A DNA stretch of 64,000 bases from Escherichia coli (GCF_051903065.1 NZ_CP178438.1); one strand, 5' to 3'. Positions 10,199 to 40,192 are shown, counted from the stretch's first letter. Made by a program: numbers and translations. Notes: generated from the sequence alone by a model not told the origin.

Positions 10199-10297
10199 GC
10201 CTGATGCGCTACGCTTATCAGGCCTACGAGGATGGTGCAATATATTGAATTTACGCGATTTTGTAGGCCGGATAAGGCGTTCATGCCGGATCCAGCA
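10199..10297. repeat. BIME: two REP palindromes with a conserved linker (possible RIP/IHF-type element)
   Basis: gcctgatgcgctacgcttatcaggcctac ... tgcaatatattgaattt ... gtaggccggataaggcgttcatgccggatcc; nearly the same architecture as 2769-2866. Confidence 0.7.
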
Positions 10298-10306
10298 TTT
10301 AACCGC

Positions 10307-10984
10307 CTAAAGCATAAACCGATAACCAATACCGGTTTCAGTAATGAAATGGCGGGGGCGAGCGGGATCCTGTTCCAGTTTTTGTCGCAGATGCCCCATA
10401 TAAATCCGCAAATAATGACTGTGTTCGACCGCGTTTGGTCCCCATACCTGGTTAAGGAGCTGGCGCTGGGTGAGCACTTTTCCAGCATTGTTGAGCAGCA
10501 CCGCCAGCAGGCGGAATTCAATCGGCGTGAGATGCACCTCTTCCTCACCCCGGTGAATCACGCGGGCGGCTAAATCGACGGTAACATCGGAAAATTTCAC
10601 CAGCGGATCGGGCGCGGCGGTGGCGGAGTGGCGGCGTAATGCGACGCGCAGACGGGCCTGCAATTCGCCAATGCCAAACGGCTTACTCAGATAATCATCT
10701 GCTCCGGCATCCAGCGCGGCGATTTTGTCGCTCTCTTCGCTACGTGCGGAAAGCACAATCACCGGCACCGCGCTCCACTGGCGCAGGTCGCGGATAAACT
10801 CAATCCCATCACCATCGGGCAGGCCGAGATCGAGAATAATCAAATCTGGCTTACGGGTAGCCGCTTCCAGCAAGCCGCGTTGCAGCGTTTCGGCCTCATA
10901 GACGCGCATCCCGTCGCCCTCCAGCGCCGTGCGCAGAAAGCGACGAATAGCCTGTTCATCTTCAACAATCAGAACGTTTGTCAC
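10307..10984 (-). CDS. kdpE: response regulator KdpE (OmpR family)
   Basis: 225-aa ORF, receiver domain ([17 protein letters not shown]...DLGLPDGDG) plus winged-helix domain; adjacent to kdpD. Confidence 0.9.
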   Translation of the reverse strand: MTNVLIVEDEQAIRRFLRTALEGDGMRVYEAETLQRGLLEAATRKPDLIILDLGLPDGDGIEFIRDLRQWSAVPVIVLSARSEESDKIAALDAGADDYLSKPFGIGELQARLRVALRRHSATAAPDPLVKFSDVTVDLAARVIHRGEEEVHLTPIEFRLLAVLLNNAGKVLTQRQLLNQVWGPNAVEHSHYLRIYMGHLRQKLEQDPARPRHFITETGIGYRFML

Positions 10985-14238: not shown

Positions 14239-16287
14239 TCACACCAGACCGCAAACGGTCAGTAGTAAATCAATGACTTTGATACCAATAAACGGCACCA
14301 GCAGCCCACCCAGACCGTAAATCCATAAGTTACGGCGCAACATGGCAGAAGCGGTAAGCGGTTTATAACTCACGCCTTTTAACGCCAGGGGAATCAAAAA
14401 GACGATAATCAAGGCGTTGAAAATGACCGCACTGAGAATGGCGGAGTCGGGCGAATGCAGGCGCATGATGTTCAGCGCATTTAACTGTGGATACGTTACC
14501 GCGAATGCCGCCGGAATAATGGCGAAGTATTTCGCCACATCGTTGGCAATGCTGAAGGTGGTCAGCGAGCCACGGGTCATCAGCATCTGTTTGCCAATAT
14601 GTACCACCTCGATCAACTTGGTCGGGTTAGAGTCGAGATCCACCATATTGCCCGCTTCTTTCGCCGCCTGAGTACCGGAGTTCATCGCCACCGCGACATC
14701 TGCCTGCGCCAGCGCCGGAGCATCGTTGGTGCCGTCGCCGGTCATTGCTACCAAACGGCCTTCCGCCTGATACTGACGGATCAATGCCAGCTTGGCCTCC
14801 GGTGTCGCTTCGGCGAGAAAATCATCGACGCCCGCTTCCGCGGCAATGGCGGCGGCAGTCAGACGGTTATCGCCGGTAATCATCACCGTTTTAATACCCA
14901 TTTTGCGCAGTTGGGCGAAGCGTTCTTTAATGCCGCCTTTGACGATATCTTTCAACGCAATAACGCCCAGCACACGAGAACCTTCTACTACTACCAGCGG
15001 TGTGGCCCCCTGACGCGCAACCTGATCGACTTTTTGATCAACATCGGCAGGGAAGTGACCACCGTTAGCCTCAACATGGCGGCGAATGGCATCGACAGAA
15101 CCTTTACGGATCATGCGGTTGTCGATATTGATCCCGCTCATCCGGCTTTGCGCAGTAAACGGTACAAAGGTGGCATGGAGCGACTGCACATCGCGCTCGC
15201 GCAGGTTAAAACGCTGCTTGGCGAGGATCACAATACTGCGGCCTTCCGGCGTTTCATCAGCCAGCGAAGCCAGTTGTGCGGCGTCAGCCAGCGTTTTTTC
15301 ATCCACGCCCTGCGCAGGGATAAACTCCGATGCCTGACGGTTACCGAGTGTGATGGTGCCGGTTTTATCCAGCAGCAGAACGTCAACGTCACCTGCCGCT
15401 TCAACTGCACGTCCGCTGGTGGCAATCACATTCGCGCCCAGCATCCGACTCATCCCGGCGACGCCGATCGCTGACAACAGGCCGCCAATAGTGGTTGGGA
15501 TCAGACAGACCAGCAGCGCCACCAGTACCGTTACGCTGACTGCATTACCGCCCCACGCGGAAAACGGCCACAGCGTGGCGGTTGCCAGTAAAAAGACGAT
15601 AGTCAGGGCAATCAGCAGGATGGTCAGGGCAATCTCGTTCGGCGTTTTGCGTCGCTGTGCGCCTTCCACCATCGCGATCATCCGATCCAGAAATGTCTCG
15701 CCGGGGTTAACGCTACACTCAATCACCAGCCAGTCAGAAAGAATACGCGTGCCGCCGGTGACGGAGGCAAAATCGCCGCCGGATTCACGGATCACCGGTG
15801 CCGATTCCCCGGTGATGGCGCTTTCATCGACCGATGCGCCGCCTTCAATAACTTCACCATCGCAGGGGATAATATCGCCTGCTTCTACCAGTACGATATC
15901 GCCTTTACGCAGTTGATCGGCGGGAACTTTGTCCGCCGCAGCGCCATATTTCGGTTCGCGCAGCTTGCGGGCAAAGGCCGTTTTTTTCACCCCTTTCAGG
16001 CTGTTGGCCTGCGCTTTACTGCGGCCTTCTGCCAGCGCCTCGGCGAAATTAGCGAACAGTACGGTGACCCACAGCCAGCCGCTAATGGCCACGCTAAACA
16101 GCGCATTGCCAGGCATCGCGCCGCTTGCCATCGCGATGCTAATACAGGTGGTCAGCAGACTGCCGATCCAGACGATAAACATCACCGGATTGCGCCATTG
16201 CGCCTGCGGGTTTAATTTTTTCACCGCTTCTTTCAGCGCCTGAACGACAAGTGTTGGTTCGAATAGCGCCAGTTGTTTACGACTCAT
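14239..16287 (-). CDS. kdpB: K+-transporting P-type ATPase subunit B
   Basis: 682-aa ORF with P-type ATPase phosphorylation motif DKTGT and hinge motif GDGTND. Confidence 0.95.
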
Positions 16288-16309
16288 ATTCAGTGCTCAC
16301 TCAATATCA

Positions 16310-17983
16310 TCAGGAGAGATATTCCGCCACCGGACCAAGCGCCAGGGCAGGGATAAAGGTCAGTGCGCCAACCAGCAACACGGTGCCGATTAACAGGCCA
16401 ACAAACAGCGGGCCGTGCGTTGGCAGCGTGCCGGAGCTGGCGGGTTGGCTCTTTTTACTCACCAGCGAACCGGCAATTGCCATCACCGGGATAATCACCC
16501 CGAAGCGACCGACAAACATGCAGAACGCCAGTAAACAGTTCCAGAACGGAGAGTTGGCGCTTAATCCGGCAAAGGCGCTGCCGTTGTTGTTAGCGGCGGA
16601 TGACACGGCGTACAGCACTTCGCTAAAACCATGCGGGCCAGGGTTGAGCATGGCGCTACGTCCGGCGTCGGTCATCATTGCCAGCGCCGCGCCCATCAGC
16701 ACCAGCGTCGGGGTGACCAGAATCGCCAGTGCAGTCAGTTTCATCTCACGTACGTCGATTTTTTTACCCAGATATTCCGGTGTACGACCAATCATCAGCC
16801 CGGCAATAAACACCGCCAGCAGGACAAACAGCATCATGCCGTAAAGACCAGAACCGACACCGCCGAATACCACTTCACCAATTTGCATCAGCCACATCGG
16901 CACCATGCCACCGAGAGCGGTAAACGAATCATGCATCGCAATCACCGCGCCACAGGACGCCGCCGTAGTCACGACCGCAAACAGGCTACTGACCAGCACG
17001 CCGAAACGGCTCTCTTTACCTTCCATATTGATGCTGCTGTCTGCGCCGAGCGCCAGCAGATGAGGATTACCCTGAACTTCTGCCCACATCACCACGCCTA
17101 CGCAGATGACAAAAATCACTGACATCGCCCACAGCAACATGCGCCCCTGGCGGCGATCGCCCGTCACTTCACCAAAGGCAAAGCACAGCGCTGTTGGGAT
17201 CAAGAAGATCGCCAGCATCTGCACGAAGTTGGTCAGTGCGGTTGGGTTTTCAAACGGATGCGACGAGTTGGCATTAAAGAAGCCACCGCCGTTAGTACCG
17301 AGCATCTTGATCGCTTCCTGAGAAGCCACCGGACCCATTGGTAACAGCTGTTGCGCTCCTTCAACGGTATTCACTGCCTGATAGGGCAGAAAGTTTTGCA
17401 GCGCACCTTGTTGAATAAAAAACAGTGCGATCACCAACGCCACAGGGACGAGCACCCATAACGTGATGCGTAGCAGATCGACCCAGGCATTCCCGAGTGT
17501 GCTCATGCTCTGGCGGGTAAATGCACGGATGAAGGCAAAAATCACCGCAATCCCGCTGGCGGCAGAAAGAAAGTTTTGCACTGTTAAGCCCGCCATCTGG
17601 CTGAAATAGCTCAACGTGGTTTCACCGCTATAAGATTGCCAGTTGGTATTCGTGACAAAGCTGACGGCGGTATTCAGCGCCAGATCCCACGACAGCCCCG
17701 GCAACTGCTGTGGATTAAGCGGCAGATAGTGCTGACCGAGCAACATAAAAAACAGCACCGCCAGCCCCAGCATGTTCAGGCCGAGAATGGCACAAAGATA
17801 TTGCTTCCAGTTCATCTCATGGTCAGAGACGCCAGGTAAACGAAAGAGTATACGTTCAACGCCCGCTGTACCTGGAAGAGGAATGTCATTAATCAGCCGC
17901 GCCAGCCCGCTGCCTAAAGGACGCGCCAGCACCATTAACACCAGTAAAAACGTGGCGATCAGTAAGAACCCTTGCGCAGCCAT
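16310..17983 (-). CDS. kdpA: K+-transporting ATPase subunit A
   Basis: Polytopic membrane protein from [24 protein letters not shown]...; start chosen at internal Met, and the ATG overlaps the kdpF stop (ATGA). Confidence 0.9.
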
Positions 17984-18072
17984 CAGAACGCCTCCGCATT
18001 GATCAGGGCATAAACCAGATAACCCAGTAATAAAAACACCAGCAATACGCCGGTTATCACGCCTGCACTCAC
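17983..18072 (-). CDS. kdpF: K+-transporting ATPase small subunit F
   Basis: 29-codon hydrophobic ORF ([30 protein letters not shown]) with apparent GTG start preceded by ggagg; stop overlaps kdpA start. Confidence 0.65.
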
Positions 18073-18145
18073 AGTGCACCTCCAGTGGCCTAAAAGTGAT
18101 ACCGGAAGGGTAGAATTCTGGCTGCAAAGATTTCGCAAAAATCTG

Positions 18146-18175
18146 CGGGCGGGGTGTAAAAAAAGTATAAAAATG
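18146..18175 (-). promoter_or_regulatory. KdpE operator of the kdpFABC promoter
   Basis: Reverse complement reads CATTTTTATACTTTTTTTACACCCCGCCCG, which matches the KdpE-binding sequence as I recall it from the KdpE-DNA literature; it lies about 75-100 bp upstream of kdpF. Confidence 0.7.
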
Positions 18176-18383
18176 GCAAAAGCCATGATTTAACTAATGT
18201 TTAGTATTAATTTAACTTTTGTGTAACTTAATTACACGGTGAATGTAAATAAACCATCAATAAGCAAAAATAAGTGGTCGGATGAGTAGTAAAATTACAC
18301 AAAAGGCGGTACTATTTTCATCAGATAAACAAATTCATTTTCCGGTGCCATTCACCGGGTAGATACAAAAGGGGGAGAAAAGT

Positions 18384-18590
18384 ATGGAACTCTACAGAGA
18401 ATATCCTGCATGGCTTATCTTTTTACGCCGTACTTATGCGGTTGCAGCGGGCGTTCTGGCGCTGCCTTTCATGCTTTTCTGGAAAGACCGCGCCCGCTTT
18501 TACAGCTACCTGCATCGCGTCTGGTCGAAAACCAGCGATAAACCGGTGTGGATGGATCAGGCCGAAAAGGCAACTGGTGATTTTTACTGA
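18384..18590 (+). CDS. ybfA: small inner-membrane protein YbfA (DUF2517)
   Basis: 68-aa [38 protein letters not shown]...; position between kdp and rhs as in E. coli. Confidence 0.8.
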
Positions 18591-18615
18591 TTGCTGAGTT
18601 CTGAATACATTGAAA

Positions 18616-18645
18616 ACCGCCAGCAGAAACGCTGGCGGTTTTTTG
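18616..18645 (+). terminator. rho-independent terminator after ybfA
   Basis: Stem accgccagc/gctggcggt, loop agaaac, then TTTTTT. Confidence 0.7.
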
Positions 18646-18832
18646 TATCAGGAAGATGTTCAGAGGAATATTTAGACACCGTTATACCAATCGAAACATA
18701 TATTCATGAAATATATATAAATATTTTCCTAATTGTTTCTATCTGACGGATATCTCACTTAAGGCTTTCTTATAAATCTGTAGGGTTTTGCCTGTCAGCG
18801 GACAAATAACCCGATAATACAAGGATGAGCAG

Positions 18833-21800
18833 ATGAGCGGAAAACCGGCGGCGCGTCAGGGCGACATGACGCAGTATGGCGGTAGCATTGTCCAGGGTTC
18901 AGCCGGGGTGCGCATCGGTGCCCCCACCGGCGTGGCCTGTTCGGTGTGCCCCGGCGGGGTGACGTCCGGCCATCCGGTCAATCCGCTGCTGGGTGCAAAG
19001 GTCCTTCCCGCTGAAACCGACATCGCCCTGCCCGCCCCGCTGCCGTTCATTCTCTCCCGCACCTACAGCAGTTACCGGACAAAAACGCCCGCGCCGGTGG
19101 GGAGCCTCGGCCCCGGCTGGAAAATGCCTGCGGATATCCGCTTACAGCTGCGCGATAACACACTGATACTCAGTGATAACGGCGGCAGAAGCCTGTATTT
19201 TGAGCACCTGTTTCCCGGTGAGGACGGTTACAGCCGCAGCGAGTCACTGTGGCTGGTGCGCGGCGGCGTGGCGAAACTGGATGAAGGTCACCGGCTGGCC
19301 GCACTCTGGCAGGCGCTGCCGGAAGAGCTTCGCCTGAGTCCGCATCGTTATCTGGCGACAAACAGTCCGCAGGGGCCGTGGTGGCTGCTCGGCTGGTGTG
19401 AGCGGGTGCCGGAAGCGGATGAGTTGCTGCCTGCGCCGCTGCCGCCGTACCGGGTACTGACCGGGCTGGTGGACCGCTTCGGGCGCACACAGACGTTCCA
19501 CCGCGAAGCCGCCGGTGAATTCAGCGGCGAAATCACCGGCGTGACGGATGGTGCCGGGCGTCACTTCCGGCTGGTACTGACCACGCAGGCGCAGCGGGCA
19601 GAAGAAGCCCGGCAGCAGGCCTCTTCCGGCGGGACGGAACCGTCCGCTTTTCCTGATACCCTGCCGGGTTACACCGAATATGGCCGGGACAACGGCATCC
19701 GTCTGTCTGCCGTGTGGCTGACGCACGACCCGGAATACCCGGACAACCTGCCAGCCGCGCCGCTGGTGCGCTATGGCTGGACGCCACGCGGCGAACTGGC
19801 GGCAGTGTATGACCGCAGCAATACACAGGTGCGCAGCTTTACTTACGATGATAAATACCGGGGCCGGATGGTGGCGCACCGTCACACGGGCCGACCGGAA
19901 ATCCGTTACCGTTACGACAGCGACGGGCGGGTGACAGAGCAGCTTAACCCGGCGGGCTTAAGCTACACCTACTGTTATGAGCAAAACCGCATCACCATCA
20001 CCGACAGCCTGGACCGCCGTGAAGTGCTGCACACGCAGGGCGAAGGCGGGCTGAAGCGGGTGGTGAAAAAGGAACACGCGGACGGCAGCGTCACGCAGAG
20101 TCAGTTTGATGCGGTGGGCAGGCTTAAGGCACAGACGGATGCCGCAGGCCGGACAACAGAATACAGCCCGGATGTGGTGACGGGACTCATCACGCGCATC
20201 ACCACACCGGATGGCAGGGCATCGGCATTTTACTATAACCACCACAGCCAGTTAACGTCAGCCACCGGGCCTGACGGGCTGGAATTGCGCCGGGAATATG
20301 ATGAATCCGGCCGTCTGATTCAGGAAACCGCCCCTGACGGCGATATCACCCGCTACCGTTATGATAATCCACACAGTGACTTACCCTGCGCAACGGACGA
20401 TGCCACCGGCAGCCGGAAAACCATGACGTGGAGCCGTTACGGCCAGTTGCTGAGCTTCACCGACTGTTCCGGTTATGTAACCCGTTATGACCATGACCGT
20501 TTCGGGCAGATGACGGCGGTGCACCGCGAGGAAGGGCTGAGTCAGTACCGCGCATACGACAGCCGTGGACAGTTAATTGCGGTGAAAGACATGCAGGGCC
20601 ATGAAATGCGGTATGAATACAACGCCGCCGGTGACCTGACCGCCGTCATTGCTCCGGACGGCAGCAGAAACGGGACACAGTACGATGCGTGGGGAAAGGC
20701 CATCCGTACCACGCAGGGCGGGCTGACGCGCAGTATGGAATACGATGCTGCCGGACGGGTCATCCGCCTGACCAGTGAAAACGGCAGCCATACCACCTTC
20801 CGTTACGATGTACTCGACCGGCTGATACAGGAAACCGGCTTTGACGGCCGCACACAGCGTTATCACCACGACCTGACCGGCAAACTTATCCGCAGCGAGG
20901 ATGAGGGGCTGGTCACCCACTGGCACTATGACGAAGCAGACCGCCTCACGCACCGCACCGTGAATGGCGAAACCGCAGAGCGGTGGCAGTATGACGAACG
21001 CGGCTGGCTGACAGACATCAGCCATATCAGCGAAGGGCACCGGGTGACGGTGCATTACGGGTATGATGAGAAAGGCCGGCTGACCGGTGAGCGTCAGACG
21101 GTGCATCACCCGCAGACGGAAGCACTGCTCTGGCAGCATGAGACCAGACACGCTTACAACGCGCAGGGACTGGCGAACCGCTGTATACCGGACAGCCTGC
21201 CCGCCGTGGAATGGCTGACCTACGGCAGCGGCTGGCTGTCAGGCATGAAGCTCGGCGACACACCGCTGGTGGATTTCACCCGCGACCGCCTGCACCGGGA
21301 AACGCTGCGCAGCTTCGGCCATTATGAACTCACCACCGCTTATACCCCTGCCGGGCAGTTACAGAGCCAGCACCTGAACAGCCTGCAGTATGACCGCGAT
21401 TACACCTGGAACGACAACGGCGAACTCATCCGCATCAGCAGCCCGCGCCATACCCGGAGTTACAGCTACAGCAACTCCGGCAGGCTGACCGGCGTTCACA
21501 CCACCACCTCAACTCTGGATATCCGCATCCCGTATGCCACGGACCCGGCAGGTAACCGCCTGCCCGACCCGGAGCTGCACCCGGACAGCACCCTCAGCAT
21601 GTGGCCGGATAACCGTATCGCCCGTGACGCGCACTATCTTTACCGGTATGACCGTCACGGCAGACTGACAGAGAAAACCGACCTCATCCCGGAAGGGGTT
21701 ATCCGCACGGATGATGAGCGCACCCACCGGTACCATTACGACAGTCAGCACCGGCTGGTGCACTACACGCGGACACAATATGCAGAGCCGCTGGTCGAAA

Positions 21801-23032
21801 GCCGCTATCTTTACGACCCGCTGGGCCGCAGGGTGGCAAAACGGGTATGGCGACGTGAACGGGACCTGACGGGCTGGATGTCGCTGTCACGGAAACCGCA
21901 AGTGACCTGGTACGGCTGGGATGGCGACCGCCTGACCACGATACAGAACGACAGAACCCGCATCCAGACGATTTATCAGCCGGGGAGCTTCACACCACTC
22001 ATCAGAGTTGAAACTGCCACCGGTGAACTGGCCAGAACGCAGCGCCGCAGCCTGGCGGATGCCCTTCAGCAGTCCGGCGGTGAAGACGGTGGCAGTGTGG
22101 TGTTCCCGCCGGTGCTGGTGCAGATGCTCGACCGGCTGGAAAGTGAAATCCTGGCTGACCGGGTGAGTGAGGAAAGTCGCCGCTGGCTGGCATCGTGCGG
22201 CCTGACGGTGGAGCAGATGCAAAACCAGATGGACCCGGTGTACACGCCGGCGCGAAAAATCCACCTGTACCACTGCGACCATCGCGGCCTGCCGCTGGCG
22301 CTTATCAGTGCGGAAGGGGCTACAGAATGGTGCGCAGAATACGATGAATGGGGCAACCTGCTGAATGAAGAGAACCCGCAACAGCTGCAGCAGCTCATCC
22401 GCCTGCCGGGTCAGCAGTATGATGAGGAGTCCGGCCTGTATTACAATCGCCACCGCTATTATGACCCGCTGCAGGGGAGGTATATCACTCAGGATCCGAT
22501 TGGGCTGAAGGGGGGATGGAATTTTTATCAGTATCCGTTGAATCCGGTTCAGTATATAGATTCAATGGGACTGGCATCAAAATATGGACACTTAAATAAT
22601 GGCGGATATGGAGCGAGACCCAACAAACCGCCTACGCCCGATCCAAGTAAATTGCCAGACATAGCGAAACAATTAAGACTGCCATATCCTATTGACCAGG
22701 CCAGTAGTGCGCCTAATGTTTTCAAAACATTCTTCAGAGCATTAAGCCCTTACGACTACACACTGTATTGCAGGAAGTGGGTAAAACCAAATCTGACTTG
22801 TACGCCACAGGATGATCCCCAGTATCCAGGGATGGATACAAAGACAGCAAGTGATTACCTGCCACAGACAAATTGGCCAACAACTCAATTACCACCAGGA
22901 TATACTTGTGCAGAACCCTATTTATTCCCAGACATTAATAAACCCGATGGGCCAGCAACAGCAGGGATAGATGATTTGGGTGAAATTTTAGCTAAAATGA
23001 AACAGAGAACATCGAGAGGAATAAGAAAATGA
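18833..23032 (+). CDS. rhsC: Rhs-family polymorphic toxin (rhsC-type): GC-rich YD-repeat core plus AT-rich variable C-terminal toxin domain
   Basis: 1399-aa ORF with many YD/RHS repeats (…YRYD…GR…), a core-end motif …[39 protein letters not shown], and a compositionally distinct tail; sits between ybfA and ybgA. Confidence 0.9.
22576..23032 (+). other. variable C-terminal toxin domain of the Rhs protein (about 150 aa, no recognisable catalytic motif)
   Basis: Begins just after the DPIGL…DSMGL core boundary; codon usage switches abruptly from GC-rich to AT-rich; Pro/Cys-containing sequence with no HNH/nuclease/deaminase motif that I can recognise. Confidence 0.6.
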
Positions 23033-23598
23033 AAAGAGTTTTGTTCTTTTTGCTGATGATATTTGTTAGTTTTGGTGTTATAGCTGATTGCGAAATACAA
23101 GCTAAAGATCATGATTGTTTTACTATTTTCGCTAAGGGTACTATTTTTTCCGCGTTTCCTGTCTTAAATAATAAAGCCATGTGGAAATGGTATCAGAATG
23201 AGGACATCGGTGAGTATTATTGGCAAACAGAACTGGGTACATGTAAAAATAATAAATTCACACCAAACGGGGCGAGACTCTTAATTCGCGTCGGGTCACT
23301 ACGCCTTAATGAAAATCATGCCATCAAAGGAACGTTGCAGGAGTTGATAAATACAGCAGAAAAAACGGCGTTTCTCGGCGATCGGTTTAGAAGTTATATA
23401 AGAGCGGGTATCTATCAAAAAAAGAGCAGTGATCCAGCTCAGTTGTTGGCAGTCCTTGATAATTCAATCATGGTTAAATATTTTAAAGATGAGAAGCCAA
23501 CTTATGCTCGAATGACAGCACATCTCCCGAACAAAGATGAGTCTTACGAATGTTTAACAAAAATACAGCATGAACTGCTTCGTAGTGAAGAAAAATAA
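23029..23598 (+). CDS. putative cognate Rhs immunity protein with N-terminal signal-peptide-like segment
   Basis: 189-aa AT-rich ORF whose ATG overlaps the rhs stop (ATGA at 23029-23032); N-terminus [19 protein letters not shown] looks like a Sec signal peptide; same size as K-12 ybfC as I recall it, but identity not verified. Confidence 0.6.
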
Positions 23599-23619
23599 AA
23601 CATCTTCCTGAGAGAATAA

Positions 23620-23757
23620 ATTAACCATTCGGGAAAACATGTTCTTAATGGATATCCAGGTACACCAGAAGGTCGATTTGGAAAAATGGATTCCGATGGT
23701 AAGAATATCATATATTCTGAATGTAATGTTTTACCCACAACTTTTGAGATTCGATAG
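23620..23757 (+). pseudogene. orphan toxin C-terminal remnant (no start codon)
   Basis: Open frame without an initiator encoding …NHSGKHVLNGYPGTPEGRFGKMDSDGKNIIYSECNVLPTTFEIR, ending 9 nt before the next small ORF; this arrangement is typical of orphan toxin-tip/immunity cassettes downstream of rhs genes. Confidence 0.4.
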
Positions 23758-23766
23758 GTGTAGAAC

Positions 23767-24069
23767 ATGAGAAACTCACTAATATTACTTATTATGATAT
23801 TGTTTACAATATCACACTCAGTATTTGGAAAAGAAAATCCAGTGGAAATTTTAGTAAATAGTTGTGAAATGGCTTTGGAATTATCATATGTTTACATTAA
23901 ATATGTATACGGGAAAGAAAAAGCAGAATTTCAGAAACCATATAGTATTACAGATGACAATAATTGTTGGAAAATCGAGGGAAAACAACCGAAGACTTTA
24001 GGAGGAAATTTTACAATACTAATAGCGAAAAAAGATGGGCAAGTGTTGAATGTAATACACACGAAATAA
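23767..24069 (+). CDS. putative orphan immunity protein (small, signal-peptide-bearing)
   Basis: 100-aa AT-rich ORF, N-terminus MRNSLILLIMILFTISHSVFG is signal-peptide-like; directly follows the toxin remnant. Confidence 0.45.
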   Translation: MRNSLILLIMILFTISHSVFGKENPVEILVNSCEMALELSYVYIKYVYGKEKAEFQKPYSITDDNNCWKIEGKQPKTLGGNFTILIAKKDGQVLNVIHTK

Positions 24070-24489
24070 TCCACTGTACAGTCGATTCAAATATTTTACC
24101 AAGGTGTGTTTCGTAACAATTTTGTGTACAATATGACTCTACATATCGACGAAAAAACCACTTGATTTGACAGGAACACATTCAAAAAAATTTCTTTTTT
24201 TCATTTCAGGAGCGATTTTCATCTGTTACTTGAAGTATCTGTGAGATTAAGTGACTCCCCCTAACGTCGTACTAAATAGTAATTACTGGCCATACCGGGA
24301 GCAGTATTCGGCGCTCCCCACATGCAGCAGAATAACCGCATCAGCCAGGGAAAGATCATCAAAAGTTCACTTTTTGCACTAAATAATTCGCATTTTATGT
24401 TTAAAAATTGAGATATTCCTTATTACCTAAAGCTGTTTTTTATTGCTTATACATGATCAAATACTCCTTACATAATTAAGGAGAACAAA

Positions 24490-25625
24490 ATGGAACTTAA
24501 AAAATTGATGGAACATATTTCTATTATCCCTGATTACAGACAAGCCTGGAAAGTGGAGCATAAATTATCGGATATTCTACTGTTGACTATTTGTGCCGTT
24601 ATTTCTGGTGCAGAAGGCTGGGAAGATATAGAGGATTTTGGGGGAACACATCTCGATTTTTTGAAGCAATATGGTGATTTTGAAAATGGTATTCCTGTCC
24701 ACGATACCATTGCCAGAGTTGTATCCTGTATCAGTCCTGCAAAATTTCACGAGTGCTTTATTAACTGGATGCGTGACTGCCATTCTTCAAATGATAAAGA
24801 CGTCATTGCAATTGATGGAAAAACACTCCGGCATTCTTATGACAAGAGTCGCCGCAGGGGAGCGATTCATGTCATTAGTGCGTTCTCAACAATGCACAGT
24901 CTGGTCATCGGACAGATCAAGACAGATGAGAAATCTAATGAGATCACAGCTATCCCTGAACTTCTTAACATGCTGGATATTAAAGGAAAAATTATCACAA
25001 CTGATGCGATTGGTTGCCAGAAAGATATCGCAGAGAAGATACAAAAACAGGGCGGTGATTATTTATTCGCTGTAAAAGGAAATCAGGGGCGGCTTAATAA
25101 AGCCTTTGAGGAAAAATTTCCACTGAAAGAATTAAATAATCCAGAGCATGACAGTTACGCAATGAGTGAAAGAGTCACGGCAGAGAAGAGATCCGTCTTC
25201 ATAATGTTTGCGATGTCCCTGATGAACTTATTGATTTCACGTTTGAATGGAAAGGGCTGAAGAAATTATGCGTGGCAGTCTCCTTTCGGTCCATAATAGC
25301 AGAACAAAAGAAAGAGCCAGAAATGACGGTCAGATATTATATCAGTTCTGCTGATTTAACCGCAGAGAAGTTCGCCACAGCAATCCGAAACCACTGGCAC
25401 GTGGAGAATAAGCTGCACTGGCGTCTGGACGTGGTAATGAATGAAGACGACTGCAAAATAAGAAGAGGAAATGCAGCAGAATTATTTTCAGGGATACGGC
25501 ACATTGCTATTAATATTTTGACGAATGATAAGGTATTCAAGGCAGGGTTAAGACGTAAGATGCGAAAAGCAGCCATGGACAGAAACTATCTGGCGTCAGT
25601 CCTTGCGGGGAGCGGGCTTTCGTAA
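24490..25625 (+). pseudogene. ISAs1-family (H-repeat-associated) transposase, disrupted by a frameshift between 25260 and 25272
   Basis: Two adjacent ORFs (24490-25260, 256 aa, frame 1; 25272-25625, 117 aa, frame 3) that together total about 378 aa, the size of an H-repeat/ISAs1 transposase (N-terminus [51 protein letters not shown]); similar to K-12 ybfD/ybfL as I recall them. Confidence 0.75.
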
Positions 25626-25637
25626 TCTTGCCCTGGA

Positions 25638-25895
25638 ATGCTGACAGATAAGAATGATTGTGCCAGAATTGAAGCTATAAGCGGACTGGCAGAAAGAAAA
25701 GATAATCGTGTTATAACTGCTATAATTTATGAACTGCAAAAAAACATAATTTTTGATGAAGTTATTATTTTGGCAGGTATTTTAGGTGATATTAAACTAC
25801 ATCCTATTCAAAAAAATATATTAAATGAATTTAATGATGAGGATGTCATTGGCAATATAAAGTCAGCAATACAACAAATTATAAAATATAATTGA
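25638..25895 (+). CDS. hypothetical protein fragment with HEAT/PBS-lyase-like repeat pattern
   Basis: 85-aa AT-rich ORF immediately after the H-repeat element; repeat-like …ARIEAISGLAERKDNRVITAIIYEL… pattern; likely a remnant. Confidence 0.3.
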   Translation: MLTDKNDCARIEAISGLAERKDNRVITAIIYELQKNIIFDEVIILAGILGDIKLHPIQKNILNEFNDEDVIGNIKSAIQQIIKYN

Positions 25896-26068
25896 TGGTG
25901 AAATATGCAGCGGTACTACCAATCGGTCAAGTATTCGCTGCTTTGATGATGATGTAAAATGATTGTTTTTGAACTGGATATAACAGCTTGGTAGGGAAGA
26001 AAGCATAACCCCACAAAATTCATTTACCATCGTCTACACTTACTCCTGTAAACCGTTCAGGAGCAGTA

Positions 26069-26578
26069 ATGAATCTACAACGATTTGATGACAGCACCCT
26101 TATCCGCATTTTTGCTTTGCAGGAGTTACACCGTCTTAAAGAGCGAGGCTTAACGCGCGGGGCGCTCAACGATTATCACAGCCGCTATAAACTCGTCTTT
26201 CTGGCTCATTCCCAGCCGGAATACCGCAAACTTGGCCCGTTCGTGGCTGATATTCACCAGTGGCAAAATCTGGATGACTATTATAACCAGTACCGCCAAC
26301 GCGTAGTTGTTTTGCTTTCTCACCCCGCCAACCGACGTGACCACACCAACGTTTTGATGCACGTTCAGGGTTATTTTCGCCCGCATATTGATTCCACAGA
26401 ACGCCAGCAGCTGGCAGCGCTTATCGACAGTTATCGCCGTGGCGAGCAACCGCTTCTTGCGCCGCTGATGCGTATCAAACACTATATGGCGCTTTATCCT
26501 GACGCCTGGCTTTCAGGGCAGCGTTATTTCGAACTTTGGCCGCGTGTGATTAACTTGCGCCATTCAGGAGTTTTATGA
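26069..26578 (+). CDS. ybgA: DUF1722 protein YbgA
   Basis: 169-aa ORF directly upstream of phr with a 4-nt overlap (ATGA). Confidence 0.8.
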   Translation: MNLQRFDDSTLIRIFALQELHRLKERGLTRGALNDYHSRYKLVFLAHSQPEYRKLGPFVADIHQWQNLDDYYNQYRQRVVVLLSHPANRRDHTNVLMHVQGYFRPHIDSTERQQLAALIDSYRRGEQPLLAPLMRIKHYMALYPDAWLSGQRYFELWPRVINLRHSGVL

Positions 26579-27993
26579 CTACTCATCTGGTCTGGTTTCG
26601 CCAGGATTTACGTCTGCACGATAATCTCGCGCTGGCTGCCGCCTGCCGCAATTCGTCTGCACGCGTGCTGGCGTTGTATATCGCTACACCACGCCAGTGG
26701 GCGGCGCATAATATGTCGCCGCGTCAGGCTGAACTTATCAATGCTCAACTGAACGGGCTACAAATCGCGCTGGCGGAAAAAGGTATTCCTTTATTGTTCC
26801 GTGAAGTGGATGACTTTGCCGCCAGCGTCGAAATAATTAAACAGGTGTGCGCGGAAAACAGCGTTACTCATCTTTTTTATAACTATCAGTATGAGGTGAA
26901 TGAGCGGGCGCGGGATGTGGAAGTTGAAAGAGCGCTGCGTAACGTGGTGTGTGAAGGATTTGATGACAGCGTGATCCTGCCGCCTGGCGCGGTGATGACC
27001 GGCAATCATGAGATGTACAAAGTCTTTACGCCTTTTCAAAATGCCTGGCTGAAACGGCTGCGGGAAGGGATGCCGGAGTGCGTCGCTGCACCAAAAGTTC
27101 GTAGTAGCGGATCGATAAAGCCCGCGCCATCCATTACGCTGAATTATCCTCGTCAGTCTTTCGATACTGCGCATTTCCCGGTGGAAGAAAAAGCGGCGAT
27201 TGCACAATTACGCCAGTTTTGCCAGAACGGTGCCGGAGAGTATGAGCAACAACGAGATTTTCCGGCAGTGGAAGGCACCAGCCGTTTGTCCGCCAGCCTG
27301 GCAACGGGCGGGTTATCACCTCGCCAGTGTTTGCATCGCCTGTTGGCGGAACAGCCGCAGGCGCTGGACGGTGGGGCCGGTAGTGTCTGGCTTAGTGAGC
27401 TGATCTGGCGCGAGTTCTACCGTCATCTGATGACGTATTACCCCTCGTTGTGTAAACATTGTCCGTTTATTGCCTGGACGGATCGTGTGCAGTGGCAGAG
27501 CAATCCCGCACATTTACAGGCCTGGCAGGAAGGCAAAACGGGATACCCGATTGTCGATGCTGCCATGCGTCAGCTTAACAGCACTGGCTGGATGCATAAC
27601 AGGCTACGGATGATTACAGCCAGTTTTCTGGTGAAAGATTTGTTGATCGACTGGCGCGAAGGCGAGCGATATTTCATGTCGCAGCTGATTGATGGTGATT
27701 TGGCAGCCAATAACGGTGGCTGGCAGTGGGCGGCTTCTACGGGTACTGATGCAGCGCCGTATTTTCGTATTTTCAACCCGACAACCCAGGGCGAGAAATT
27801 TGACCGCGAAGGCGAGTTTATCCGCCAGTGGCTACCGGAACTGCGCGATGTGCCAGGGAAAGTGGTGCATGAGCCGTGGAAGTGGGCTGAGAAAGCAGGT
27901 GTGAAGCTGGATTATCCGCAACCGATAGTCGAGCACAAAGAGGCGAGAGTACAAACGTTGGCAGCGTATGAGGCGGCGCGGAAGGGGAAATAA
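26575..27993 (+). CDS. phr: deoxyribodipyrimidine photolyase
   Basis: 472-aa ORF, N-terminus MTTHLVWFRQDLRLHDNLALAAA and FAD-binding C-terminal region (…WREFYRHL…NGGWQWAASTG…) typical of class I CPD photolyase. Confidence 0.9.
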   Translation: MTTHLVWFRQDLRLHDNLALAAACRNSSARVLALYIATPRQWAAHNMSPRQAELINAQLNGLQIALAEKGIPLLFREVDDFAASVEIIKQVCAENSVTHLFYNYQYEVNERARDVEVERALRNVVCEGFDDSVILPPGAVMTGNHEMYKVFTPFQNAWLKRLREGMPECVAAPKVRSSGSIKPAPSITLNYPRQSFDTAHFPVEEKAAIAQLRQFCQNGAGEYEQQRDFPAVEGTSRLSASLATGGLSPRQCLHRLLAEQPQALDGGAGSVWLSELIWREFYRHLMTYYPSLCKHCPFIAWTDRVQWQSNPAHLQAWQEGKTGYPIVDAAMRQLNSTGWMHNRLRMITASFLVKDLLIDWREGERYFMSQLIDGDLAANNGGWQWAASTGTDAAPYFRIFNPTTQGEKFDREGEFIRQWLPELRDVPGKVVHEPWKWAEKAGVKLDYPQPIVEHKEARVQTLAAYEAARKGK

Positions 27994-28021
27994 CAGACGC
28001 GTCAGGCAATTGAGCCCAGAT

Positions 28022-28127
28022 GCCGGATGCGGCGTGAACGCCTTATCCAGCCTACAAATTTGTGCAAATTCAATAAATTGCAGGAAATACGTAGGCCTGA
28101 TAAGACGCGTCAAGCGTCGCATCAGGC
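28022..28127. repeat. BIME: two REP palindromes with AT-rich linker
   Basis: gccggatgcggcgtgaacgccttatccagcctac … gtaggcctgataagacgcgtcaagcgtcgcatcaggc. Confidence 0.7.
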
Positions 28128-28142
28128 ATCGGTGCTGGCCTA

Positions 28143-29807
<1,665 letters not shown>

Positions 29808-29894
29808 TTAATATGTCAAAAGATTGGCTATCGACGAACAGGCGAGGTAACGCTATGTTAACGGTGTAGCTATCAGAATACGGAAGGCGCGAAG

Positions 29895-30638
29895 ATGAAA
29901 AACACCGAACTGGAACAACTGATTAACGAAAAACTGAACAGCGCGGCGATTAGTGATTACGCGCCGAATGGTTTGCAGGTGGAAGGCAAAGAGACGGTGC
30001 AAAAAATTGTTACCGGTGTCACTGCCAGCCAGGCTTTGCTCGATGAGGCAGTGCGTCTGGGCGCGGATGCGGTCATTGTGCATCATGGCTACTTCTGGAA
30101 AGGCGAATCTCCGGTCATTCGCGGCATGAAGCGTAACCGTTTAAAAACGTTGCTGGCGAATGATATCAACCTGTATGGCTGGCATTTGCCGCTTGACGCA
30201 CATCCTGAGCTGGGCAATAACGCACAGCTGGCGGCGTTACTGGGGATTACGGTCATGGGCGAAATTGAGCCGTTGGTGCCGTGGGGCGAACTGACCATGC
30301 CTGTGCCGGGACTGGAGCTGGCTTCCTGGATTGAAGCGCGTCTGGGACGTAAGCCGTTATGGTGTGGCGATACCGGACCTGAGGTGGTCCAGCGCGTCGC
30401 CTGGTGCACGGGCGGCGGGCAAAGTTTTATCGATAGCGCCGCGCGTTTTGGCGTGGATGCTTTTATTACTGGCGAAGTTTCTGAACAGACCATTCATTCA
30501 GCCCGCGAGCAGGGATTGCATTTTTATGCTGCAGGTCACCATGCCACTGAACGCGGTGGTATTCGCGCATTGAGCGAGTGGCTGAATGAAAATACCGATC
30601 TTGATGTGACCTTTATTGATATTCCTAATCCTGCATAA
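29895..30638 (+). CDS. ybgI: Nif3-family metal-binding protein (GTP cyclohydrolase 1 type 2 homolog)
   Basis: 247-aa ORF; His-rich metal-binding motifs (…VHHGYFWKG…, …AAGHHATE…). Confidence 0.85.
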   Translation: MKNTELEQLINEKLNSAAISDYAPNGLQVEGKETVQKIVTGVTASQALLDEAVRLGADAVIVHHGYFWKGESPVIRGMKRNRLKTLLANDINLYGWHLPLDAHPELGNNAQLAALLGITVMGEIEPLVPWGELTMPVPGLELASWIEARLGRKPLWCGDTGPEVVQRVAWCTGGGQSFIDSAARFGVDAFITGEVSEQTIHSAREQGLHFYAAGHHATERGGIRALSEWLNENTDLDVTFIDIPNPA

Positions 30639-30660
30639 CGAATAATCAGAGGGATCGAAA

Positions 30661-31317
30661 GTGCAACGAGCGCGTTGTTATCTGATAGGTGAAACGGCGG
30701 TAGTGCTGGAACTGGAACCGCCGGTGACGCTGGCTAGCCAGAAACGGATCTGGCGACTGGCGCAGCGTCTGGTGGATATGCCGAATGTGGTTGAAGCCAT
30801 TCCCGGCATGAACAATATCACGGTGATTTTGCGTAATCCTGAGTCGCTGGCGCTGGATGCCATAGAGCGTTTGCAACGCTGGTGGGAGGAGAGCGAGGCC
30901 CTGGAACCTGAGTCCCGCTTTATTGAAATTCCGGTGGTTTACGGTGGTGCAGGCGGACCGGATTTGGCGGTGGTCGCGGCGCATTGCGGGTTGAGCGAAA
31001 AACAGGTTGTTGAATTGCACTCCTCCGTGGAATACGTGGTCTGGTTTTTAGGTTTTCAACCGGGCTTCCCGTATCTCGGGAGTTTGCCGGAACAACTACA
31101 CACGCCACGGCGCGCTGAACCGCGCTTGCTCGTTCCGGCAGGTTCTGTCGGGATCGGCGGACCGCAGACTGGTGTTTATCCGCTGGCAACGCCGGGTGGC
31201 TGGCAGTTGATTGGTCATACCTCACTCAGCCTGTTTGATCCGGCGCGTGACGAACCCATCTTATTACGTCCGGGAGACAGCGTGCGCTTTGTACCGCAAA
31301 AGGAGGGAGTATGCTGA
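30661..31317 (+). CDS. pxpB: 5-oxoprolinase subunit B
   Basis: 218-aa ORF with GTG start; first gene of the ybgJ-ybgK-ybgL cluster with overlapping stops/starts. Confidence 0.8.
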
Positions 31318-32243
31318 AGATTATTCGTGCGGGCATGTATACCACTGTGCAAGATGGCGGTCGTCACGGTTTTCGCCAGTCGGGTATCAGCCACTGCGGC
31401 GCACTGGATATGCCTGCGTTACGCATTGCTAACCTGCTGGTGGGTAATGACGCCAATGCCCCCGCGCTGGAGATCACGCTCGGTCAGTTAACGGTTGAGT
31501 TCGAAACTGATGGGTGGTTTGCTCTGACGGGTGCCGGTTGCGAAGCGCGGCTGGATGATAATGCCGTCTGGACCGGCTGGCGATTGCCGATGAAAGCAGG
31601 CCAGCGTTTAACGCTTAAACGCCCGCAGCACGGGATGCGCAGTTATCTGGCTGTCGCGGGTGGTATTGATGTTCCGCCGGTAATGGGGTCATGCAGCACC
31701 GATCTCAAAGTGGGGATTGGCGGGCTGGAAGGCCGTTTACTGAAGGATGGTGACCGACTCCCGATTGGCAAATCGAAGCGTGATTTTATGGAAGCGCAGG
31801 GCGTTAAACAGCTGCTGTGGGGCAACCGCATTCGCGCCTTGCCGGGGCCGGAATATCATGAGTTCGATCGCGCCTCGCAGGATGCATTCTGGCGTTCGCC
31901 CTGGCAGCTTAGCCCGCAAAGTAACCGCATGGGCTATCGCTTACAGGGGCAAATTTTAAAACGCACCACCGATCGCGAACTGTTATCTCACGGTTTGTTA
32001 CCGGGCGTGGTGCAGGTGCCGCATAACGGGCAGCCCATTGTGTTGATGAACGATGCACAGACCACCGGTGGTTACCCGCGTATTGCCTGTATCATTGAGG
32101 CTGATATGTACCATCTGGCGCAAATTCCGCTCGGTCAGCCGATTCATTTTGTCCAGTGTTCACTGGAAGAGGCACTGAAAGCGCGGCAAGATCAGCAACG
32201 TTATTTCGAACAATTAGCGTGGCGGCTGCACAATGAAAATTGA
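31311..32243 (+). CDS. pxpC: 5-oxoprolinase subunit C
   Basis: 310-aa ORF overlapping pxpB and pxpA; allophanate-hydrolase-subunit-2-like. Confidence 0.8.
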
Positions 32244-32967
32244 CCTGAACGCCGATCTGGGCGAAGGCTGCACCAGCGACGCAGAGCTATTAACGCTGGT
32301 TTCCTCTGCCAATATTGCCTGTGGATTTCATGCAGGCGATGCGCAAACCATACAGGCTTGCGTGCGTGAAGCAATAAAAAATGGTGTCGCGATTGGCGCT
32401 CATCCGAGTTTTCCCGACAGGGAAAATTTTGGTCGCAGCGCTATGCAGCTGCCGCCAGAAACCGTTTACGCCCAGACGCTGTATCAAATTGGCGCGCTGG
32501 CAACGATTGCCCGTGCGCAAGGCGGCGTAATGCGTCATGTCAAACCGCACGGCATGTTGTACAACCAGGCGGCGAAAGAAGCACAACTGGCAGACGCCAT
32601 CGCCAGAGCGGTATACGCTTGCGATCCAGCATTGGTTCTCGTTGGGCTGGCAGGAAGCGAGCTGATTCGTGCAGGCAAGCAATATGGCCTGACAACGCGC
32701 GAGGAAGTGTTTGCCGATCGCGGTTATCAGGCTGACGGCTCGCTGGTGCCGCGAAGCCAGTCAGGCGCGTTGATTGAAAACGAAGAACAGGCGCTGGCGC
32801 AAACGTTGGAGATGGTGCAACACGGCAGAGTCAAAAGTATCACCGGCGAATGGGCAACGGTCACGGCGCAAACGGTCTGCCTGCATGGCGACGGCGAGCA
32901 CGCACTGGCGTTCGCCCGCCGACTACGCTCTGCATTTGCCGAAAAGGGGATTGTTGTCGCAGCATAA
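32233..32967 (+). CDS. pxpA: 5-oxoprolinase subunit A (LamB/YcsF family)
   Basis: 244-aa [23 protein letters not shown]… (LamB/YcsF N-terminal signature). Confidence 0.85.
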
Positions 32968-33002
32968 CCCCGATTAATAAAGAATGAAAAAAGGATATCA
33001 CC

Positions 33003-34837: not shown

Positions 34838-34985
34838 CCTTTGCTCCCTCATTATTTTCTCTTTGGTGTATCGATACAGCATAAAGAATGCCGGGCATGG
34901 AAAAAATAACGGTAATCAATAAAAGCCGGAAAATTGGCAATTAACCGAAGAAGCCCTCTCCGGCTGGAAAGGGCAATAGGCTAAA

Positions 34986-36775: not shown

Positions 36776-36789
36776 CGTCTTTTCCTTAA

Positions 36790-39249: not shown

Positions 39250-39298
39250 ACCTGAACAATATTCGCAAAAGGCGGCTAATCAGCCGCCTTAAAAAGGA

Positions 39299-39865: not shown

Positions 39866-40192
39866 ACATGAATCCTTCATGGGCTATGATAAAGTATACT
39901 AATTATTCCGACAGAATAGTGGTTTTTTGCTCATGTAATAATATTAATGTTGCTACATTATGTTTGAGAGTTTCTCAAAGCTCTCGAATCATAAATAAAG
40001 TGAATTAATCCTATTACGAGTTTATTTAATTGTGGGTGCTACCCAATGTATTCTACATCGATTGGCGGGATAACGGTGGTGGTGAATGAAAAATTAGGAT
40101 TTTATTTAGTTATCGGATATGTATTCTTGTAACGTGTAATTATGTATTTGTGTCCGATTACGTTTTTTTGTCGATAGACATAACTAACGAAC

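Follow-up and report, generated by a model that had tools for sequence, protein, structure and literature searches.

An rhsC-position Rhs element of Escherichia coli in which a YbfO-type tip is attached to the core and followed directly by ybfC

In the chromosome of Escherichia coli K-12 (NC_000913.3), the genes around rhsC follow each other in the order ybfA, rhsC (1397 aa), ybfB (108 aa), ybfO (a pseudogene, or orphan), ybfC (189 aa), ybfQ, ybfL, ybfD, ybgA and phr. In another E. coli genome (GCF_051903065.1, NZ_CP178438.1), of which we analysed a stretch of 64,000 nucleotides (called the window in the following), a full-length rhs gene seems to run straight into a gene of the size of ybfC. 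An earlier note on this DNA had given the K-12 order correctly, and had proposed that the main rhs gene recombined with a downstream orphan tip and that the interval between the two was deleted. We asked which tip and which immunity gene this element carries, and whether the arrangement is derived from the K-12 type or is older than it.

The ORF calls in the window bear out the arrangement that had been described, that is, a full-length Rhs ORF and then a 189-aa ORF of the secreted type. No Rhs fragment was called between the rhs gene (1399 aa) and the 189-aa ORF, and the stop codon of the former and the start codon of the latter share 4 bp (ATGA). Since ybfA is conserved on the left, the locus is the rhsC position (kdpA to phr). 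We see here the rhsC-position Rhs element (kdpA/ybfA to ybgA/phr) in its direct form, while the K-12 layout is referred to as displaced. The features of the locus are the following:

18384..18590, plus strand: ybfA (DUF2517), PF10725 at 2.9e-34; left neighbour, gene order as in K-12
18833-23032, plus strand: rhs gene, intact ORF from ATG to stop, 1399 aa
18833..22492, plus strand: Rhs N-terminal region and YD-repeat core up to DPxGL, with RHS_repeat, DUF6531 and RHS domains; G+C 0.60-0.68
21527..22547, plus strand: core stretch that is doubled in K-12-type genomes; both K-12 copies align, single copy here
22493..22507, plus strand: DPIGL (DPxGL motif), core/tip boundary; regular-expression match on the translation, aa 1221
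22548..23032, plus strand: C-terminal tip of about 160 aa, of the YbfO type by its identity to K-12 YbfO; presumed toxin domain
23029-23598, plus strand: ybfC, ATG to stop, 189 aa, signal-peptide-like N-terminus; presumed cognate immunity gene
23767..24069, plus strand: orphan NTF2-fold immunity gene 3' of ybfC, PF15631 at 1.8e-20; tail of the same Rhs element
24346..25635, plus strand: ISEc1/ISAs1 (H-repeat) with a broken transposase frame, 95.5% identical to K-12 ybfL; bounds the Rhs element
25638..25895, plus strand: truncated YibA-like HEAT-repeat gene, NF007244 at 3e-24, profile positions 202-283 of 285

The transposase ORF of the H-repeat is split into 256 and 117 aa, and the element is annotated by RefSeq in identical genomes. 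The YibA-like fragment behind it is what is left of another orphan immunity gene, and E. albertii has a longer HEAT gene colinear with it. A scan for promoters and terminators gave counts at chance level.

The Rhs protein has the sequence features of an enterobacterial clade I Rhs polymorphic toxin. A profile search found the long YD/RHS-repeat core (RHS_repeat, PF05593, in 11 stretches, 5e-68) together with DUF6531 (2e-17) and RHS (PF03527, 4.5e-16, aa 1143-1179), and the RHS_core profile NF041261 matches by its last 28 positions. The core ends in PxxxxDPxGL, after which a variable tip begins. The G+C content is 0.60-0.68 over 18800-22400 and goes down to 0.37-0.45 from 22500 to 24400, which gives the G+C-rich core and the A+T-rich tip and downstream genes of this class. 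The N-terminal PAAR-like motif is weak (PF05488, PAAR_motif, 16.5 bits and E 0.01 against a cut-off of 27) and precedes DUF6531; a literal KPAARQGD is present. At the locus itself we found no linkage to vgrG, hcp or a chaperone gene, as ybfA and the kdp operon lie upstream and there is no adjoining vgrG. We infer that the Rhs protein may be delivered by a type VI secretion system.

Next, we compared the locus with that of K-12. Over its last 227 aa, the Rhs ORF is nearly identical to K-12 YbfO (225/227, 99%), and the 189-aa ORF is YbfC (183/189 identical residues, 97%). On the other hand, the likeness to the native RhsC of K-12 stops about 15 aa past DPIGL, and the two tips are unrelated. The tip is therefore that of YbfO and not the native tip of RhsC, and the short ORF is not a ybfB-type immunity gene; together with the K-12 order, on which the earlier note had made its proposal depend, this leaves the proposal standing on these points. 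At the DNA level, positions 18000-22561 of the window align to K-12 rhsC with 96.7% identity, and positions 21527-23637 align to K-12 ybfO and ybfC with 97.9%. A single K-12 interval of 1.87 kb is missing from the window; it contains the RhsC tip, ybfB and about 1 kb of core sequence in a second copy. The same core position is found in the K-12 locus (L001) at 6278 in the main gene and at 8149 in the orphan, which gives an interval of about 1871 bp. The alignment is colinear, and this single 1871-bp difference is bounded by the repeated core, with no other scar. Recombination of the main gene with the orphan would take out exactly this interval. The tip of the window is also the orphan tip downstream of the same gene in RM10042, 95_0274, UID2404240040 and ATCC 8739.

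The direct layout is not particular to this strain. It occurs in about 1118 of 5426 complete E. coli genomes (about 21%), O157:H7 included, with identities of 96.6-100%, and is already present in the RefSeq annotation. The displaced form, with the cassette of RhsC tip and ybfB, occupies the kdp-phr locus in about half of the complete genomes. An NTF2 gene follows ybfC also in O157:H7, in ATCC 8739 and in the nikR-locus element of JCH767. When the presence or absence of the cassette is combined with that of the NTF2 tail, all four combinations occur, each in hundreds of genomes; the region recombines freely. Cassette and NTF2 tail together were detected with a chimeric query in 156 genomes (among them BL21, ATCC 8739, E. 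coli C and UMNK88). One locus, L012 from strain IH5, was left out, as it looks like a scrambled assembly.

How did the direct form arise? On balance, we lean towards the view that the allele of the window descends from a displaced locus by a secondary deletion. Homologous recombination between the core of the main gene and the 1-kb core repeat of the orphan would have joined the YbfO tip to the core again, with loss of the RhsC tip and ybfB, and would thus have led to what the window has, a full-length Rhs protein with a YbfO-type tip that is translationally coupled to ybfC. Such an event would have been early rather than recent in this strain, and common to diverse lineages of E. coli, O157:H7 among them. 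E. albertii has, at this kdp/phr locus, the K-12-like displaced layout with the same junction between ybfB and the orphan. Its identities are 96.3% for ybfB (nucleotide), 95.6% for the 45-bp junction, 93.9% for the orphan core, 96.7% for the YbfO tip and 93.2% for ybfC, while the flanks are about 92% identical. The tips of E. coli, direct or orphan, differ by 0-1.25% among themselves and by 2.7-3.5% from E. albertii; for ybfC, the distances are 0-2.3% within E. coli versus 5.8-6.5% to E. albertii. It is the layout in E. albertii, taken together with the tip distances, that favours a secondary deletion. Furthermore, two strains of the direct type, S21 and USMARC-49610, have at position 22538 a C that is otherwise specific to orphans, and S21 has a tip and a ybfC identical to those of the K-12 type; both strains look like recent deletion derivatives.

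Less probable, and still to be taken seriously, is the opposite reading, in which the window shows an original state that was never displaced. The K-12-type, B-type and E. albertii loci would then each have gained the cassette later, by crossovers in the core on both sides, and recombination within the species would have made the tips and ybfC genes of direct and displaced loci alike. Every orphan presupposes an earlier attachment to a full-length gene, and the attached form is indeed found in another genus and at the nikR locus, where a direct module has a tip whose branch is deeper than those of all alleles at the kdp locus. The base at 22538 is, in the window, ES5 and O157:H7, the one seen in main copies and in the orphan of E. 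albertii and not that of the E. coli orphans; of the haplotypes most similar to the window, the first 30 all have the direct form. The cassette itself (836 bp) is 100% identical in K-12, RM10042, 95_0274, ATCC 8739 and an orphan of F8111-1SC3, where it lies at the rhsA position with the same junction, before a different tip; at least 99% identity is seen in 2710 of 2779 genomes. Such uniformity across strains and loci resembles that of a recently spread element. However, the YbfO tip is equally uniform (0.00%) in the same displaced strains, so that uniformity is no sign of youth, and the cassette of E. albertii has diverged by 3-4%, a value close to that of the tip next to it, for which joint inheritance is the better fit; the argument from a young cassette is weakened accordingly. 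With core homology on both sides of the cassette and an identical orphan in another rhs locus, gain is possible by homologous recombination as well as loss, and since the cassette is mobile, a junction in common is no proof that the tip next to it has the same descent. Nevertheless, if the window was never displaced, a cassette with this junction must have been imported independently two times or more, including once into E. albertii, and in terms of mechanism an import is far harder than the loss of an interval between direct repeats of 1 kb. Two further lines of argument were given up. The lack of the NTF2 segment in K-12 does not exclude a displaced ancestor on structural grounds, as the 156 genomes with cassette and NTF2 tail make clear, and parsimony over phylogroups was abandoned because the flank haplotypes are decoupled from the arrangement types.

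Two other explanations can be weighed against the frequency of the layout. A rearrangement in this strain or its immediate ancestors, like the activation of orphans in laboratory Salmonella, would use a mechanism that is fast and selected in culture and in mice (PMC3967940), and loci of the S21 type show that it occurs in nature. We consider it very improbable for the window, whose locus is 100% identical in three genomes and at least 99% identical in 16, and whose layout is common to so many others. Moreover, no displaced-type genome has a tip haplotype like that of the window; the best ones are about 0.9-1.6% off in the tip, ybfC and NTF2 regions. Even less credible is an artefact of assembly or annotation, i.e. 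a 1-kb core repeat collapsed in silico. The collapse of repeats of such size is a known failure of short-read assemblies, but more than a thousand genomes that were finished independently, many from long reads, show the same structure, and the reading frame is intact.

While the 1-kb repeat is a substrate for recombination between main gene and orphan, its sequence does not lead back to one crossover. The earlier note advised looking for a breakpoint near the DPxGL core boundary, and we could read none: neither three-way alignments nor an alignment of 17 sequences yielded a crossover point in the 1-kb repeat, as main-like and orphan-like sites alternate along the window. In ATCC 8739, the blocks of main and orphan copies have even traded places relative to the other displaced strains. 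The shared 1-kb core is a mosaic, apparently formed by gene conversion among rhs cores. In summary, the proposed recombination of the main rhs gene with a downstream orphan tip agrees with the YbfO tip, with ybfC and with the absence of 1.87 kb; a deletion is the more probable direction, and the event is old and shared. The notion of a tip displacement, under which the proposal had been put forward, has to be turned around: the displaced tip is that of K-12, and in the window the tip is attached.

The YbfO-type tip itself is proline-rich and has three invariant cysteines, and it belongs to a small family found in E. coli, Salmonella and Phytobacter. It matched no Pfam or NCBIfam family; a sequence search of the PDB gave no solved relative, with matches to the DPxGL stretch only, and the AlphaFold model of the tip was unusable (pLDDT 43). 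The model of YbfC is a beta-sandwich with no specific structural relative, and the protein looks exported. A scan of species representatives for YbfC returned only four loci, of which two are E. coli contamination in metagenome bins and one is an orphan ybfC behind an IS element. The ybfC gene stays beside the YbfO-type tip in K-12, E. albertii and Phytobacter. The two are presumably a toxin and its cognate immunity protein, and the export of the immunity protein suggests that the toxin acts in the periplasm. Most Rhs tips are cytoplasmic nucleases, deaminases or ADP-ribosyltransferases, and a periplasmic one would be unusual. Given a tip that has no family, solved relative or confident model, and a YbfC with a signal-peptide-like N-terminus and a beta-sandwich fold, one may speculate, as a less likely case, that the pair forms an undescribed toxin/immunity family acting in the periplasm. 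If this were true, the cassette at this locus would let the cell change from a periplasmic weapon to another kind and back.

For the annotation, the consequence is that the RhsC of this strain should be read as carrying a YbfO-type toxin with YbfC immunity and not the pair of RhsC toxin and YbfB seen in K-12; cells of this strain may therefore be sensitive to a K-12-type RhsC toxin. Beyond a correct annotation the case has little weight, but it shows known Rhs tip exchange cleanly in a natural setting. The four structural states, and a displaced state shared with E. albertii, would lend themselves to a population-genetic study of the frequency of tip gain and loss.

The closest known systems place the locus among these exchanges. 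The rhsC-ybfB-ybfO-ybfC locus of K-12 (Rhs element C, position 5 of Jackson et al. 2009) has the same chromosomal position, the same clade-I core, the same tip and ybfC. It differs by the extra cassette between the core and the YbfO tip (another tip, ybfB and the 1-kb core repeat), which makes the YbfO tip a silent, unattached orphan; it also lacks the downstream NTF2-fold immunity gene and has three H-repeat copies where the window has one. O157:H7 and about 1100 complete genomes share the layout of the window, with an Rhs protein of 1399 aa, ybfC and the NTF2 immunity gene. O157:H7 FRIK2533 is colinear with positions 14502-24345 (kdpB to the NTF2 gene) at 98.2%, and only point differences and the content of the tail set the two apart: in O157:H7 a DUF6258 gene is retained and ybfC is frameshifted, whereas the tail of the window has an ISEc1-bounded deletion and the YibA-like fragment. 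In Phytobacter ursingii ATCC 27989, vgrG is followed by a 1383-aa Rhs protein with the same tip and then by a YbfC homologue, with a 4-bp overlap as in the window. The Rhs protein is 66% identical over 1400 aa including the tip, and so is the YbfC homologue (66%). The Phytobacter gene, however, lies directly 3' of vgrG and at another genomic position, while the gene of the window has no vgrG beside it.

In Salmonella Typhimurium LT2, it was shown experimentally that recombination can join the main rhs gene to an orphan tip, with loss of the main tip and of the immunity gene that belongs to it (Koskiniemi et al. 2014, PMC3967940). There, the event was seen directly, and it came after a duplication, so that the main immunity gene was kept, whereas the window presents the end state only and the direction is inferred. 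Jackson et al. (2009, PMC2935791) described how clade-I rhs tips are exchanged and incumbent tips are pushed downstream (the C-terminal displacement model); ybfO and ybfC are not named in that work. The same paper proposed a model of excision and integration, in which circles formed by core/orphan recombination take along part of the core, a tip and the genes in between, and the RhsC-tip/ybfB cassette at the rhsA position, with its identical junction, fits this model. With both mechanisms published (Jackson 2009; Koskiniemi 2014), the arrangement in the window is an ordinary case of known Rhs tip shuffling.

The window covers the E. coli interval from kdpB-kdpA-kdpF and ybfA to ybgA-phr, where the following features were found:

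18384-18590, + strand: ybfA (ORF listing)
18833-23032, + strand: intact rhs ORF, 1399 aa (ORF listing)
23029-23598, + strand: 189-aa ORF, ybfC (ORF listing)
23767-24069, + strand: 100-aa ORF with NTF2-fold immunity domain (ORF listing; PF15631, 1.8e-20)
24346-25635, + strand: ISEc1/ISAs1 (H-repeat) element, transposase split into 256 and 117 aa (ORFs 24490-25625)
25638-25895, + strand: 85-aa ORF, YibA-like HEAT-repeat (NF007244, 3e-24)
3' of the 85-aa ORF, + strand: ybgA and phr (ORF listing)

The earlier note had placed a full-length Rhs ORF directly before a 189-aa gene, and this was confirmed by the ORF listing and by the overlap of the rhs stop with the next start (ATGA). A domain search of the 1399-aa ORF returned RHS repeats, DUF6531 and the RHS core-end domain. 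The core boundary motif DPIGL lies at aa 1221, and just past it G+C falls from 0.60-0.68 to 0.37-0.45. Given the overlap, the domains, the motif and the G+C drop, the adjacency of the two genes is real.

In K-12 MG1655 the order is rhsC, ybfB, ybfO (a pseudogene), ybfC, ybfQ, ybfL, ybfD, ybgA and phr, which matches the order rhsC-ybfB-ybfO-ybfC given in the earlier note. By BLAST, window 18000-22561 matches K-12 rhsC (96.7%) and window 21527-23637 matches ybfO plus ybfC (97.9%), so that the two matches overlap. The stretch 21527-22547 occurs twice in K-12 (at 6278 and 8149 of the extracted K-12 locus, L001); therefore K-12 has 1871 extra bases here, namely the RhsC tip, ybfB, a 45-bp joint and a second core copy. 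No further difference between the window and K-12 was seen in the alignment at the rhs/orphan point. The final 227 residues of the window Rhs are those of YbfO at 225 of 227 positions. Likeness to the K-12 RhsC tip stops about 15 residues past DPIGL, so the tip is not the native RhsC one, and the 189-aa protein is YbfC (183/189 identical) and not a ybfB-type immunity protein. The structural proposal of an orphan tip attached to the main gene, with the interval gone, thus holds; the title given to it was reversed as to which genome's tip had been displaced. Below, the window's layout is called direct, the K-12 layout displaced, and RhsC tip plus ybfB the cassette.

Other differences from K-12 were seen along the window. 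The 5.7-kb segment ybfP-ybfG-ybfI-potE-speF-speFL, which encodes the inducible ornithine decarboxylase and putrescine antiporter, is absent between pgm and kdpE (about 10297-10309). The sucD-cydA interval (about 52300-55200) has copies of IS1 and IS903B where K-12 carries mngA and mngB; on plasmids, IS903B often adjoins blaCTX-M-14. Identity to K-12 is only about 90% over window 26006-39877 (ybgA to the ybgOPQD fimbrial operon), compared with 97-99% for the rest, and 89% over the first 250 bases 3' of the Rhs element.

How common the layouts are was surveyed in 5426 complete E. coli genomes. An unbroken run of core, YbfO tip and ybfC (query 20500-23500, at least 80% at a single site) was found in 1118, O157:H7 among them, and the cassette in 2527. 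Any match to the ybfC-containing query (23200-24345) was seen in 3592 genomes, ybfC followed by the NTF2 segment in 843, and cassette and NTF2 segment together in 156 (BL21, ATCC 8739, E. coli C, UMNK88). Four states therefore exist side by side in E. coli.

Cassette and NTF2 tail in E. coli; counts are approximate, by subtraction among the survey counts
W: cassette absent (direct), NTF2 tail present; the window; about 690 genomes
S: cassette absent (direct), NTF2 tail absent; S21; about 400 genomes
B: cassette present, NTF2 tail present; ATCC 8739; about 156 genomes
K: cassette present, NTF2 tail absent; K-12; about 2370 genomes

Over 7.8 kb, 3 genomes are 100% identical to the window and 16 at least 99%, and O157:H7 FRIK2533 is colinear with it (98.2%) between kdpB and the NTF2 gene. 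The layout is not a strain-specific rearrangement, and we give very little weight to a recent event or an artefact as its source. RefSeq already names it, as 'RHS element core protein' followed by 'ybfC' and 'NTF2 fold immunity protein'. In the window both rhs and ybfC are intact, unlike in several direct-type genomes, where ybfC is frameshifted (O157:H7 FRIK2533, L003 8529-9099) or rhs has a frameshift (S21, L015 5331-9532) or an internal stop (USMARC-49610, L014 5334-9533).

The evidence on the direction of the event is mixed. We consider it somewhat better than an even bet that the window's direct allele is a secondary deletion, an old event within E. coli, which would have come about as the earlier note proposed, by recombination of the main rhs gene with the orphan. 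The outgroup E. albertii, whose locus was reached via its YbfC homologue, has the displaced arrangement at the same kdp-ybfA ... ybgA-phr position, with a degraded main rhs gene. Identities there are 96.8% for the end of the K-12-type RhsC tip, 96.3% for ybfB, 95.6% for the same joint, 93.9% for the orphan core, 96.7% for the YbfO tip, 93.2% for ybfC and about 92% for the flanks. Tips differ by 0-1.25% among E. coli alleles of all types and by 2.7-3.5% from E. albertii; for ybfC the values are 0-2.3% and 5.8-6.5%. Interpreted as a genealogy, these data place the displaced arrangement at the base of all E. coli alleles, which would make deletion the origin of the direct ones. This stands against the alternative that the YbfO tip was always attached in the window lineage, which we regard as the less probable, though far from negligible. 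In its favour, position 22538 is T in the window, ES5 and O157:H7, as in main copies and the E. albertii orphan but unlike E. coli orphans; in addition, the nikR locus of JCH767 has a direct module that diverges earlier than any kdp-locus allele. S21 and USMARC-49610 have C at 22538, elsewhere found only in E. coli orphans, and S21 matches the K-12 type exactly in its tip and ybfC; judged by sequence, both strains appear to be clear deletion derivatives.

The breakpoint that the earlier note suggested looking for near the DPxGL boundary was not found: the 1-kb repeat, aligned over main, orphan and direct copies taken from 11 loci, shows a patchwork of variable sites, and ATCC 8739 even has main and orphan blocks exchanged relative to the other displaced strains. 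The cassette is 100% identical in K-12, RM10042, 95_0274 and ATCC 8739, and equally so in F8111-1SC3 (L002, 6140-9733), where it is an orphan at the yibF-yibH (rhsA) position, with the same ybfB-45 bp-core joint and then an RhsB-type tip and yhhH. This is direct evidence of cassette movement between rhs loci. Since core homology lies on both its flanks, homologous recombination can bring the cassette in or take it out, and this mobility weakens arguments from the shared junction. In summary, deletion by main/orphan recombination is plausible and mildly favoured as a mechanism; its direction is unproven, and the event is old and widespread.

Two further observations concern these loci. In E. 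albertii an internal deletion has taken from the main rhs gene (L020 5648-8467) the 3' end of the core and the greater part of the RhsC-type tip, the counterpart of L017 6607-8308 in ATCC 8739; ybfB and the downstream orphan array are kept. The JCH767 module (L013 5334-11518) comprises Rhs, YbfO tip, ybfC, NTF2 immunity gene and DUF6258 downstream of nikR (rhsB position); its identity to the window is 96.3%, and the likeness starts one base before the rhs start codon.

The 100-aa NTF2-fold ORF, an orphan immunity gene, has a signal-peptide-like N-terminus and is not preceded by a toxin gene. K-12 lacks it; in O157:H7, ATCC 8739, BL21 and the nikR-locus Rhs element it lies 3' of ybfC. We had considered the NTF2 tail a bar to descent from a displaced locus and dropped this, as the 156 B-type genomes carry both. 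The 85-aa ORF, directly 3' of ISEc1, corresponds to the last third of a YibA-like HEAT-repeat protein; it is colinear with a HEAT gene of 150 aa in E. albertii and is probably an orphan immunity gene that has been cut short. At the 24345/24346 joint, the ISEc1 edge, the close relative ES5 carries an additional 220 bases.

The YbfO-type tip matched no Pfam or NCBIfam family and, beyond the DPxGL stretch, no solved structure; its AlphaFold model was unusable (pLDDT 43). Its few homologues, all at least 64% identical, are from E. coli, Salmonella, Phytobacter and a few metagenomes. By our own inspection the 21 N-terminal residues of YbfC look like a putative Sec signal peptide; the YbfC model (pLDDT 79) is rich in beta structure, and its only structural likeness is of a generic Ig-like kind. 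A putatively exported YbfC suggests that the toxin target would be periplasmic. The N-terminal PAAR match of the window Rhs was below threshold and no vgrG adjoins the gene; type VI delivery is assumed from the family.

Tip and ybfC are paired in K-12, E. albertii and Phytobacter ursingii. In the latter, vgrG is followed by a 1383-aa Rhs, 66% identical throughout including the tip, and by a YbfC homologue (66% identical) with a 4-bp overlap. This pairing supports a putative cognate pair of toxin and immunity protein whose proper place is a full-length Rhs. The kdpA to phr position is among the oldest E. coli rhs loci, and tips are common to several loci (Jackson et al. 2009, PMC2935791); the same authors proposed that core/orphan recombination yields circles whose re-insertion displaces the incumbent tip. 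Main/orphan recombination with loss of the main tip and immunity gene was shown in Salmonella (Koskiniemi et al. 2014, PMC3967940), and Poole et al. 2011 (PMC3150448) pointed out that orphan modules of one species occur fused to full-length genes in other species. The window belongs to this already known picture of Rhs tip exchange.
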